A stretch of DNA of 64,000 nucleotides from Octopus vulgaris (taxonomy: Eukaryota): the NCBI GenBank assembly GCA_951406725.2, contig OX597814.1:145824001-145888000 (forward strand). Reading direction: 5' to 3'. The position numbers and the translations under genes are program-made. The notes under the pieces are model-generated. The model searched no databases and had not been told where the DNA came from. It worked only from the letters and a program-made list of their open reading frames with translations. Below are positions 40,687 to 58,003 of this stretch, one piece after another. Position 1 is the stretch's first letter, and each line of letters begins with the position of its first letter.

Positions 40687-42174
40687 GCATATACACACGA
40701 ATACACATACACACGCACACAAATATGATTACACTCACATATATACGACATATATAAATACATATTCGTATATATCTACACATATTTATATGTGTGTGCG
40801 TGGGTCTGTTTGTGTGAGACTGTCTTGTTGTATCTGTATGTGTGTACATATATCATCTGTATATGAAAGAACGTATACACATACATAATTACATATACAA
40901 CAATCTGTGTGAGATAAAAATACGTTTACGCCAATATTAGTACTAGATATGATATTTCCTGACGGCAGAATGACTATAAGCTTATTAAATGTGCCAAGAA
41001 GACATTCATACTAAATGTCTGTTATAAGATGAGATTAAATTATTTAATCCTCAAATCCTGAAGCTTTTTCATTTATGTCTTTTAAGTTAGAGAACATTTT
41101 ACTTCAGATTGATGTCATTTTGCTGTTTCAATGTAATGAAGCTGGAAACAAGATAGCAGGAAAGGAAAGTAGAGATAGAAAAAAGATCCATGCGTACGCA
41201 GTACTTTCTATAAAGTAGAGTATCTTTCTAATAGAAATACAAAAGCCTCTCTCTCTCTCTCAATAGAATTAAGATAAAAAAGTTTAATGCTGACTTTTAA
41301 ACAAGTTTTGCTTTCTGTTACTATTCTACTTACAATTTAGAATTGGAAAGAGCGTGTTAGTAAGTCATGCCCTTCCTTCGGCTCTAAGGGATTGTTCTTT
41401 GGGGTTGTTCAACATAGAGAAGACCCTCATGGATTGGACAGGTAACAACACAGTGACCCTGCTTCACATGACAGAAAATAGATGCCAGTGATAATGGCTA
41501 ATTACGAAAGCGCCTAGAAGGGCACCCGAACGAGTGTCCGCATCAGTTAAGGGATATTTATGATGGTGATTGTATGGCACTGTGTTTTATTGGAAGCGAG
41601 ATCACACTGTTGCTTATAAATAGATAGACTGACCTGAGAAGATCCAGGATTCAAAATGTCTCTAGAGACATTAATTTTCTCATTGCATGGAAATATAGGA
41701 TTTCAAATGAAGAAAACTTGGTTTCTATAACTGAAAATAATCTTTTCTTTCCTGTCTGAAAATACTGCATCAGGAATGAGTTACTTTTATCTATAGGCTG
41801 AAACAGCTGTAAGTTATTTTACCAATTTATATTAATGTTTTTTTTTAAAATAATTAGTGGTATCCTTATCTTATATACAACGAATAATATGCTATATGTA
41901 TGTATGTTATTATAATTATCAGTTTAATAAATAAGTTAACATTTTTAATGTCCAAAAGTTGATGAACCACCTATTGTTCAGCACCATTTTCTTATTTGCA
42001 ATATAAATTAATGGTTAAATATCTCTTTACCTTCACTCATTTACTACAGTAGGTAATGTAATTGCAATGCAATAAAAAACACTGTGTATTAATAATTGGG
42101 TATCCTACCAACAGTATATTGGATAAATATTAGTGGGTTGGATTCACAGCCCCTAACTTTCTTGGAGTTATATA

Positions 42175-42248
<74 letters not shown>

Positions 42249-42465
42249 TAATGTAGGATAAAATTGTTTTCGTGAACAATTTTTTATCAATGGCCAGCGT
42301 ATCAAAAAATACCTTTAAAGGTTAAATTTATAAATAATTTACAAGATAAGGGCAAAAGAAAAATTCTAATGCCAAATATGCCGAAAAAAAGACAATTATT
42401 GTCAATAACCATTATAATTTATGCCTCTCGAAACAAACCGATAGAAATTTCTAAAAAATCCGTTA

Positions 42466-42525
42466 TTACCGTATTGGTCCAATTTCGGGGTTAATTCATA
42501 AGAATTTTCCCCTCTTCAGCGATAA
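42466..42525 (-). ncRNA. Type I hammerhead ribozyme with canonical core
   Basis: Minus strand TTATCG-CTGAAGA-GGGG(AAAATTCTTATGAATTAA)CCCC-GAAA-TTGG-A-CCAA-TA^-CGGTAA; all three stems pair, AUA site. Confidence 0.85.
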
Positions 42526-42923
42526 ATACGTGGGATATAAGTGAAATACTTATTCATACCCATGGAAAAAGCAAGCACTAAGTCCTGAGCAGACCTAAGT
42601 AACCCAAATATATCCAAAATAGAAAATCTTCGGCACATCTCGAGACACGTGATTCGAACTAGAAACTTTCACAGAGTGAGAGAATCCGGAAGTGAACACT
42701 ATTCAATTTATAACTAATGTAGGATAAAATATCCAAAAAAATGTTATCCTACATTAGTTGGATTCTCTCACTCTGTGAAAGTTTCTAGTTCGAATCACAC
42801 GTGTCTCGAGATGTGCCGAAGATTTTCTATTTTGGATATATTTGGGGTACTTAGGTCTGCTCAGGACTTAGTGCTTGTTTTTTCCATGGGTATGAGTAAG
42901 TATTTCACTTATATCCTACGTAT

Positions 42924-42983
42924 TTATCGCTGAAGAGGGAAAAATTCTTATGAATTAACCCCGAAATTGGACCAATACGGTAA
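42924..42983 (+). ncRNA. Type I hammerhead ribozyme, mirror copy
   Basis: TTATCG-CTGAAGA-GGGA...CCCC-GAAA-TTGG-A-CCAA-TA^-CGGTAA; predicted cleavage after 42977. Confidence 0.82.
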
Positions 42984-43285
42984 TAACGGATTTTTTAGAA
43001 ATTTCTATCTGTTTGTTTCGAGACACATAAATTATAATGTTTAATGACAATTTTTGTCTTTTTTTCAGCATATTTGGCATTAGAATTTTTCTTTTGCCCT
43101 CATCTTAGCCGAAATAAGATTAAGATTAATGTAAAAAATAAATAACACTGAAGCAAAGTAACACCAAATATATAGTGCGTGTGATTTTATTGGCTAAACT
43201 GGCAAAATGACCGTTCCGAAATATAACAATATCTGTTTCAACACACGACTTCACATAAAAGATCTTGCACAACAAATATATAAAC

Positions 43286-43336
<51 letters not shown>

Positions 43337-56762: not shown

Positions 56763-57387
56763 TATATTACTGTTATCATCTTAGTCTTTATCATACTTTG
56801 CACAAATGTACCACAAATTTCCTAATATGATTTTCAACTAAAAATTTGTAACGAATCAATATCACGCCTATAAAAAATATATTTATCTATACATGTATGT
56901 GCGGGTGTGCATAAAAACAGACTTATTATACGGGGGATAAGAATCAAACCTTATTTCCAGCAGGGTTTTCTTTGACATACCGATATTAGTCTATATTATA
57001 GAAATACCTGTCTTAGCTCACTTCTTTTCAAATTATTCAAATTATCTCGGTGATAAAAGTCTTCCACAATTTTTTGTACATTCTAACTCCTCCTCCATTT
57101 CGTGATTTCGGAGAACAAAAATTGCTTTTAAACTTCTCAGTACTTTAAAATGCAGTCTGAAAAAAGAATAGAATCTCTACATTTTGCATGATCAAACATT
57201 CTAATTTAATTAGTAAAAGTTGTCAATTTTCTCCGTGAAATATCGTCGCGTCTTACTTCAAAACAGTCTTCGATTTCCGCGTATGACCACCCATTTTTGT
57301 CTGTGCGCGTATATATATATATATATATAAAACATTATTGGTGAATTGAAGAAATGGAGCTGAACGCAGATTGAACAGAAATCGTTT

Positions 57388-57481
57388 TATTTCATTCTAC
57401 ACGTGTTTCGAAAGGCACAAATTACCAAAATCCGATTGAATAATGGGACCACATTGTGTCTTTCTCTTCAGGAAGAAAATA
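57388..57481 (-). ncRNA. Type I hammerhead ribozyme, mirror copy
   Basis: Reverse complement of 57651-57744. Confidence 0.82.
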
Positions 57482-57650
57482 GGAAATCCGTTGGAAAAAC
57501 AAAAACAGAACAGAGGCGAAGCAAAAACAAATCGAACTATGCTCCTAAGAGCCCATGGCGAAACATGGTTTCGCCATGGGCTCTTAGGAGCATAGTTCGA
57601 TTTGTTTTTGCTTCGCCTCTGTTCTGTTTTTGTTTTTCCAACGGATTTCC

Positions 57651-57744
57651 TATTTTCTTCCTGAAGAGAAAGACACAATGTGGTCCCATTATTCAATCGG
57701 ATTTTGGTAATTTGTGCCTTTCGAAACACGTGTAGAATGAAATA
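57651..57744 (+). ncRNA. Type I hammerhead ribozyme with long stem II
   Basis: TATTTTCTTC-CTGAAGA-GAAAGACACAA...TTGTGCCTTTC-GAAA-CACGTG-TA^-GAATGAAATA; palindromic stem III, GUA site after 57734. Confidence 0.85.
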
Positions 57745-57953
57745 AAACGATTTCTGTTCAATCTGCGTTCAGCTCCATTTCTTCAATTCACCAATAATGT
57801 TTTAATTTCAATTATCCGCACCAACGCACGGTTGCAACACCATATGGTTGTACCTCCAACCGTGCTGTTTACTGCTGTGATTTTTGCTACTAAGGTATCG
57901 GTTAAACCTTTGATTAATCTACTACAAGATTATTCATCTTTCTATTTCACATA

Positions 57954-58003
<50 letters not shown>

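Follow-up and report, generated by a model that had tools for sequence, protein, structure and literature searches.

The window, a stretch of 64,000 nucleotides of the Octopus vulgaris genome (contig OX597814.1), carries a composite insertion that lies between two (TA)n tracts and consists of two inverted arms of a 466-nt repeat unit followed by the 3' end of a second element (Table 1). For numbering, the reverse complement of 42246-42729 was taken as q1-484, with the unit spanning q19-484. An earlier note on this DNA had described the left arm as one 466-nt unit plus a short repeat of its own end, and this was confirmed: the first and last 18 nt of the 484-nt arm are the same, and the 19-mer AACTAATGTAGGATAAAAT occurs twice with a spacing of 466 nt. 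The inverted arm was also found as described, beginning with the same motif, TTATCCTACATTAGTT (42744-42759), joined directly to GGATTCTCTC, and the deficit put at about 24 nt was exactly 24 nt (q19-42). The right arm begins upstream of the start given in the note, at about 42731, in the end of a preceding unit, and so this arm also spans the unit junction. Over 345 nt, the arms differ by 14 substitutions and one 2-nt indel. The right arm terminates at q387 (43106), where it is fused to the 3' end of another element, a Penelope-like element (PLE) here called family 3. The 86 nt between the two 3' ends of the family, B and A, are referred to as the tail (q399-484); the hairpin at q442-473 within it was a frequent stop point for arms already past the junction.

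Table 1. Features of the composite insertion (positions are those of the window)
Feature	Position	Strand	Basis
(TA)n target tract at the A end of the left arm	42172..42245		Sequence
Left (A) arm, q1-484: full unit (42711 to 42246) plus 18 nt of the preceding unit (42729-42712)	42246..42729	-	Sequence
19-mer, copy 1: A end, inferred reverse-transcription start at the TA tract	42246..42264	+	496 exact genome matches of A end plus TA
Hairpin upstream of the A end, q442-473; candidate binding signal (function inferred)	42257..42288	-	Fold prediction
B site (~q398, GTAAATT/AT), second 3' end of the family; read through in the left arm	42325..42340	-	Family copies
Hammerhead motif of the left arm (CUGAAGA, GAAA, AUA); predicted cut after 42472	42466..42525	-	Motif and stems
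19-mer, copy 2: A site met again after one round (unit junction)	42712..42730	+	142 exact junction matches
Start of the right arm: last ~30 nt of the preceding unit (~q455-484), apex with the left arm	42731..42759	+	Sequence
Right arm, q43-387, joined to q484 with q19-42 missing; found at the window locus alone	42760..43106	+	Sequence, genome pattern search
Hammerhead motif of the right arm; a private G>A cuts stem II to 3 bp; predicted cut after 42977	42924..42983	+	Motif and stems
3' end of family 3 (other PLE, probably autonomous); no TA at the fusion	43107..43289	+	Starts 1-2 nt from the predicted hammerhead cut of family 3
(TA)n tract closing the composite insertion	43290..43334		Sequence

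Hammerhead motif and predicted fold

A type I hammerhead motif is present in both window arms, with CUGAAGA at 42519 (- strand) and 42930 (+ strand) together with GAAA and AUA, and its core is kept across the family copies. Stems I/II/III measure 6/4/4 bp in the left arm and 6/3/4 bp in the right. Canonical metazoan hammerheads usually have a helix III of 1-2 bp (PMC4209133); the sizes of helices I and II of the unit match theirs, whereas its helix III is longer. Forcing the hammerhead fold on the window arms was predicted to cost 1.0-1.4 kcal/mol over the minimum free energy structure. Rfam returned no hammerhead match at the gathering score or at E<=10, and the assignment therefore rests on the motif and the stems. 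The Rfam matches at E<=10 were all to hairpin-shaped miRNA models far under their cut-offs and were dismissed as matches of shape. A second candidate hammerhead at q440-470 (UUGAUAA...CGAAA) was dropped on inspection, having no stem I and folding as a plain hairpin.

The unit is predicted to be strongly self-paired. As a circle, the window copy was predicted to fold at -109 kcal/mol (z = -3.6) and the family majority sequence at -123 kcal/mol (z = -6.6; 30 shuffles each), with weaker folding of the antisense strands (-83 and -85 kcal/mol, respectively); the predicted linear fold of the unit gave z = -4.3 against shuffles. Covariation among 21 full units, in a tested structure that lay outside helix III, was not above that of shuffles and is uninformative on the fold because the copies are too alike. 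In about one-fifth of the arms, loop III of the hammerhead carries an extra base (4 nt rather than 3 nt; q250-252, window 42478-42480), which is a subfamily change that could alter cleavage.

A dispersed repeat family with two 3' ends

A DNA search of the genome (2.8 Gb, 227 contigs) gave 3342 first-look candidates, of which 40 were scored. Exact patterns were found 339 times for the hammerhead, 142 times for the junction and 496 times for the A end followed by TA, with no match to any reversed control. As the exact A pattern is present in only 23 of 66 A-ended loci, the genome holds roughly 1,400 A ends. The unit is a dispersed, non-coding 466-nt repeat family with a hammerhead motif; its longest ATG-started frame has 41 codons, its GC content is low (<50%) and it has no LTR. 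Copies were analyzed in three samples, pooled to 210 loci. For sample one, the first 100 of the 339 hammerhead matches were taken, which amounted to 85 distinct loci. Sample two drew on the first 100 of the 496 A-end matches; its 84 loci are biased to short arms, as nearly all of the 16 positions dropped had already been seen. Sample three consisted of sets picked by length or by junction.

Copies finish in (TA)n at one of two 3' ends, A (q484) or B (~q398), 86 nt apart. Across the 210 loci, 238 A-motif matches were found, of which 147 run into TA-rich sequence, 74 into a next unit and 17 into other sequence. Head-to-head pairs made up 58 of the 85 loci of sample one (39 A+B, no A+A, no B+B and 19 with a clipped end), and a further 10 of the 85 were lone B-ended arms. 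For the 84 A arms of sample two, the partner was an inverted B arm in 42 cases, an A arm in 2, a clipped arm in 7 and a direct piece in 2, while 31 had none. The pooled loci contained 136 head-to-head pairs, comprising 91 A+B, 3 A+A, no B+B and 42 with a clipped end. SINE-like inserts or PLE ends often interrupt or adjoin the element in common (TA)n tracts (L051, L094, L183, L133, L312), and these neighboring repeats account for many of the clipped ends.

Inserted PLEs show an inverted, 5'-truncated arm and a tail at one end only (PMC8557442, PMC3846280). The family copies have the same anatomy, with a tail, an inverted arm and a partial tandem, and their (TA)n target is common to the PLEs of this genome. 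Mobilization in trans by a PLE reverse transcriptase-endonuclease is very probable. The A/B end pairing, the (TA)n target and the standard PLE anatomy of tail and inverted arm were all absent from the earlier note. The 19-mer was rejected as a target-site duplication, since it lies inside the element in all 30 top copies and the flanks differ.

The suggestion that the two window arms came from two template variants was not upheld. The junction that is 24 nt short has a single match in the genome, at the window locus, with up to 1 mismatch allowed, and five subfamily alleles plus one rarer (9%) allele are common to the two arms; 10 of the 14 substitutions between them involve alleles present in at most 6% of copies. 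Throughout the family, opposite arms of pairs agreed at 1058 of 1136 subfamily sites, and rare alleles were shared by opposite arms about 10 times as often as by unrelated copies (0.88 versus 0.09). The allele comparisons thus indicate a single source for both arms and both rounds of a copy, and the 24-nt gap would reflect either a single event in which the enzyme slipped back onto the A site or a deletion that came later.

A second non-coding hammerhead family is present in the window at 57310-57960, with the motif CUGAAGA...GAAA CACGUG UA and 1633 first-look candidates in the genome, the top matches being 94-98% alike. Its head-to-head arms lie in (TA)n, with a short end on one side and a longer end of ~150 nt on the other. 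Both arms halt at a single, constant 5' end and are separated at the apex by filler that varies, and this apex pattern was seen in 19 of the 25 top matches, a set selected for full length. By its sequence, this family resembles what the 466-nt element would be if copied from a linear template.

Template, priming and possible partners

The proposal that a one-hammerhead monomer of ~466 nt was copied past its own junction was borne out in the wider family, with 28 of 143 arms crossing the junction in a sample not chosen for it and with no parental 5' flank. In total, 96 in-register crossings were observed, of which 40 came from samples picked without regard to the junction, and arms passed the junction with neither a stop nor a scar. 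Arms longer than one unit re-enter the unit itself and never an ORF. The longest arms measured 1223 and 1144 nt, with a maximum of 2.6 units, and the median length of A arms was ~190 nt. Between 50 and 300 nt, the stop rate was 0.16-0.28 per 50 nt, and it peaked at 0.5 in the interval of 300-350 nt. Two hammerheads within one arm, sufficient to release a monomer, were present in 13 of the 20 long copies fetched and, by a strict pattern, in 1 of 169 loci from samples not chosen for length. In the longest copy (L041, 2.6 units), one junction (760-810) contains 30 nt of filler composed of short echoes of A-end sequence, which suggests re-priming at the A site.

Fixed linear ends attached to a PLE ORF had been named as the alternative. 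Two fixed 3' ends do exist (A and B), but no copy ends an ORF, and a shared parental 5' flank, sought in the 86 free 5' flanks of the 210 loci, was not found, the flanks yielding simple repeats or local duplications only. With two PLE proteins as queries and family 3 excluded, a PLE ORF fragment was found near 7 of the 210 loci, none with a junction common to another copy. A PLE fragment head-to-head with L193 is ~400 nt distant and degenerate and was not counted as a chimera.

Successive rounds of one arm agreed at 593 of 621 subfamily sites, against an expected disagreement of 47% for a random pool. Between rounds, 369 differences were found in 9832 sites (3.75%), split 187/188 between the rounds. 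Rounds were thus identical at insertion, which excludes jumps within a mixed RNA pool and old tandem masters. Taken together, the sequence signals are probably best fitted by a circular RNA template, which would account for all of the template observations without extra assumptions. Of the circular or tandem RNA template put forward in the earlier note, the in-register reading through the junction stands; the circle is the best fit only, as a young, uncleaved tandem transcript also fits. Of 24 sequencing runs, 20 contain part of the stretch and none is registered as RNA; contigs from 8 of them carry no information on ends, strand or circularity and were given no weight. With respect to tandem arrays among the copies, in-register arms of up to 2.6 units were found, but when a 2.6-unit query was searched, long arrays were absent from the 40 best of its 4033 candidates; the assembly could lack arrays.

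The same two-primer PLE insertion could have used an uncleaved linear partial-tandem transcript, a mini-PLE with a pseudo-LTR in which the hammerhead is dispensable and no circle forms. If young, such a master would leave the same sequence signals as a circle, and copies of 1.7-2.6 units exist as potential masters. Partial tandems are moreover a normal form of PLEs (PMC8557442, PMC3846280), and the Anolis PLE protein was found to copy unprocessed, uncleaved RNA in vitro with no requirement for the hammerhead (PMC11167929). However, the family shows no common 5' wall, and junction-crossing arms end throughout the second round, while the fixed 5' end of the family at 57310-57960 indicates that such a wall is visible where present. 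Differences from unit to unit also lack recurrence between loci: 5 locus pairs share two round differences, compared with 3 in the reversed control, and the most recurrent site was seen 6 times, compared with 2 in reverse. In addition, with a median A arm far shorter than one unit, linear copying alone would erode the family. This template is regarded as a serious but doubtful alternative to the circle.

The inverted arm might be the product of a single cDNA that folded back and primed itself, or of an antisense template, in which case B would be a resolution cut rather than a priming site; either form of template would be compatible with this. An antisense template has been proposed for rotifer PLEs (PMC3846280), the B arm is contained in the A arm in 64 of the 91 A+B pairs, and in 21 of the 91 the stops of the two arms fall no more than 12 nt apart on the template (mean 6.9 and maximum 16 on permutation), often, as judged by eye, close to short palindromes (CCATGG, TCGA, AAATTT). 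On the other hand, 21 of the 91 pairs have more than 20 nt in each arm that are absent from the other. As neither arm contains the other, self-copying of one cDNA is ruled out for these pairs, which need two cDNAs, and together with the lone B-ended arms they establish B as a real start site. The coincident stops fit annealing of two cDNA ends or fold-back of one, and a mixture is possible. Fold-back as the general origin of the inverted arm is considered unlikely, and it is likely that there were two primings, one per DNA end, at A and at B.

Should the template have been a linear monomer, reading through the junction would have required jumps between RNA molecules at the ribozyme cut or the A site. 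In favor of such jumps are the right arm of the window, which passes from q43 to q484, the 30-nt junction filler of L041 and the family-3 fusion, which begins at the predicted cut of family 3. The last of these is only suggestive, because 29 of 30 family-3 copies read through their own hammerhead, the remaining one joining its own inverted arm at the junction position of the window copy. For a hammerhead-cut linear monomer, arms stopping at the predicted cut (226 nt) or scars at that position would be expected, and neither was seen. Of the A arms in sample two, 32 of 84 extend past the cut, among the 34 at risk only 2 terminate 5 nt or less from it, approximately the background rate, and among ~250 arms there was 1 insertion and no deletion at the site. 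Moreover, the 96 in-register crossings compare with 2 irregular ones (the right arm of the window and L041), and the 95% agreement of rounds at subfamily sites would confine any jumps to one source. A linear monomer is thus disfavored and is judged very unlikely.

For the PLEs of the genome, a search for GIY-YIG sequences gave 6136 candidates, of which 150 were scored and 50 loci examined. One family encodes a 781-aa protein with RT and GIY-YIG (L152-L157, e.g., L157:1706-4048), with many intact frames and a CxxxxCxxC linker, by which criterion it appears Neptune-like. It has a degenerate hammerhead core, with UUGAUAA replacing CUGAUGA, and targets (TA)n. Its two ends are separated by 38 nt, and a single A+B pair was observed; between its terminal repeat and the RT frame lies ~1.3 kb of mostly open sequence resembling an ORF. 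Family 3 is an abundant PLE-like element (4571 exact 20-mer matches; L334, L339, L349) with a minimal hammerhead and two ends ~60 nt apart, and 11 of its pairs, two of them possibly duplicates, comprised 10 A+B and 1 A+A. Its ORF is divergent and RT/GIY-YIG-like, its PLE nature resting on tblastn matches of 25% (E ~1e-6), and a fragment of the ORF had no match in Pfam. Homology of the 466-nt unit to PLEs was found neither in the 50 GIY-YIG loci nor in 25 family-3 loci. The fusion at 43107, a single case in the 210 loci, involves the last 183 nt of family 3, joined to the arm 11 nt before B is reached. A later insertion and a template switch would both explain this fusion; if the right end of the window copy had primed on hammerhead-cleaved family-3 RNA and then jumped to the circle, this copy would name the partner.

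That the unit is simply the truncated end (pLTR) of a so-far unseen autonomous PLE and no element of its own, as other hammerhead repeats of the genome (family 3) are and as coverage of only part of the PLE diversity might allow, is highly improbable and already largely refuted, given that arms beyond one unit run back into the unit, that none of the 86 free 5' flanks shares unexplained junction-adjacent sequence and that the unit is practically devoid of coding capacity.

Proposed cycle and relation to known elements

The account that we lean towards is a PLE-mobilized insertion of a non-coding 466-nt hammerhead repeat, probably copied from a circular monomer RNA. In this cycle, a rare copy with two hammerheads would be transcribed, and self-cleavage at the AUA site would release a 466-nt monomer to be ligated into a circle. 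A PLE protein, probably a dimer, would cut both strands of a (TA)n tract. Internal priming would then take place at A from one DNA end and, 86 nt further upstream, at B from the other. Each cDNA would run for a random length, ~200 nt on average and at times more than one full round; in the window copy, the A arm would have gone once round plus 18 nt. The two cDNA ends would then be joined, often at short palindromes, leaving head-to-head arms with a one-sided tail.

In L1 twin priming, cDNA is primed from both ends of the target, resulting in a 5' inversion. The arms of the 466-nt family differ in that they copy overlapping sequence from two fixed sites, as the majority outcome. A plant LTR retrozyme was rejected as an identity for the unit, those elements having a type III hammerhead, true LTRs and a 4-bp target duplication, whereas the unit has a type I hammerhead, ends in (TA)n and lacks an LTR pair.

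The family would work both like an animal non-LTR retrozyme and like a non-autonomous PLE. Animal retrozymes form circRNAs (Cervera and de la Pena 2020, PMC7229834), and the non-coding, low-GC unit with one type I hammerhead of canonical size, strong self-pairing, copies longer than one unit and co-existence with PLEs resembles them as described there. At 466 nt, the unit is just over the 150-450 bp given for them (PMC7229834) and within the 51-972 bp of a 2026 bioRxiv preprint in which retrozymes and non-autonomous PLEs are argued to be identical (10.64898/2026.07.22.740005). Unlike those elements, the family is dispersed and mostly shorter than one unit, and, in contrast to the retrozymes as described in these two sources, each copy has the full PLE anatomy of two ends, tail, inverted arm and TA target. 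For the 466-nt family, circles and cleavage are predictions from genome sequence. Against them, cleavage failed in 8 of 9 dimers of Xenopus retrozymes (Li, Clavereau and Pollet 2026, 10.64898/2026.07.22.740005).

With insertions of EN+ PLEs (Arkhipova et al. 2013, PMC3846280; Craig et al. 2021, PMC8557442; Frangieh et al. 2024, PMC11167929), the family shares 5' truncation, a partial tandem, an adjacent inverted arm, a one-ended tail, an AT-rich or (TA)n target and two internal start sites. On AT-rich DNA in vitro, the Anolis PLE protein cleaves both strands and extends each of them, with two internal RNA start sites that bound the tail and with no difference between strands in the start site (PMC11167929). 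The EN+ PLEs of these reports have a tail of 30-40 nt, whereas that of the unit is 86 nt; the unit also differs in having no ORF, and hence no RT and GIY-YIG ORF between pLTRs as in an autonomous EN+ PLE, no homology to the PLEs examined and a strict, counted A+B pairing. Non-autonomous Chlamys PLEs such as MRC1 are likewise non-coding PLE dependants with pLTRs and head-to-tail copies (PMC8557442). However, according to the same report, their 3' ends are generally similar to those of the autonomous partners and canonical hammerheads are missing from most Chlamys elements, while the 466-nt unit has a hammerhead and no partner match. In the literature, no description of the 466-nt family or of counted A/B pairing was found; supplements could still list the family.

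A circular template for PLE tandems was hypothesized by Cervera and De la Pena in 2014 (PMC4209133), and PLE-driven retrozymes and circle-derived PLE tandems are standing hypotheses based on shared hammerheads, co-occurrence and terminal-repeat phylogeny (PMC7229834, PMC4209133, 10.64898/2026.07.22.740005). To these, the octopus family adds evidence at the level of the insertion, in the form of an ORF-less hammerhead unit with the same two-ended, TA-targeted footprint as the PLEs of its own genome. Tentatively, its genomic copies may directly document the copying of a ribozyme-made circle by a PLE enzyme, in which an asymmetric dimer used two fixed priming sites and went more than twice round, with two-hammerhead products regenerating the circle. 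The pairing of A with B, and almost never of like with like, is a countable rule that any mechanism must explain, and the 466-nt unit with its known start sites offers a small, cheap substrate for tests of circular versus linear templates. The family thus provides a genomic test case for the published circle hypothesis, with an unusually clear record of copying.
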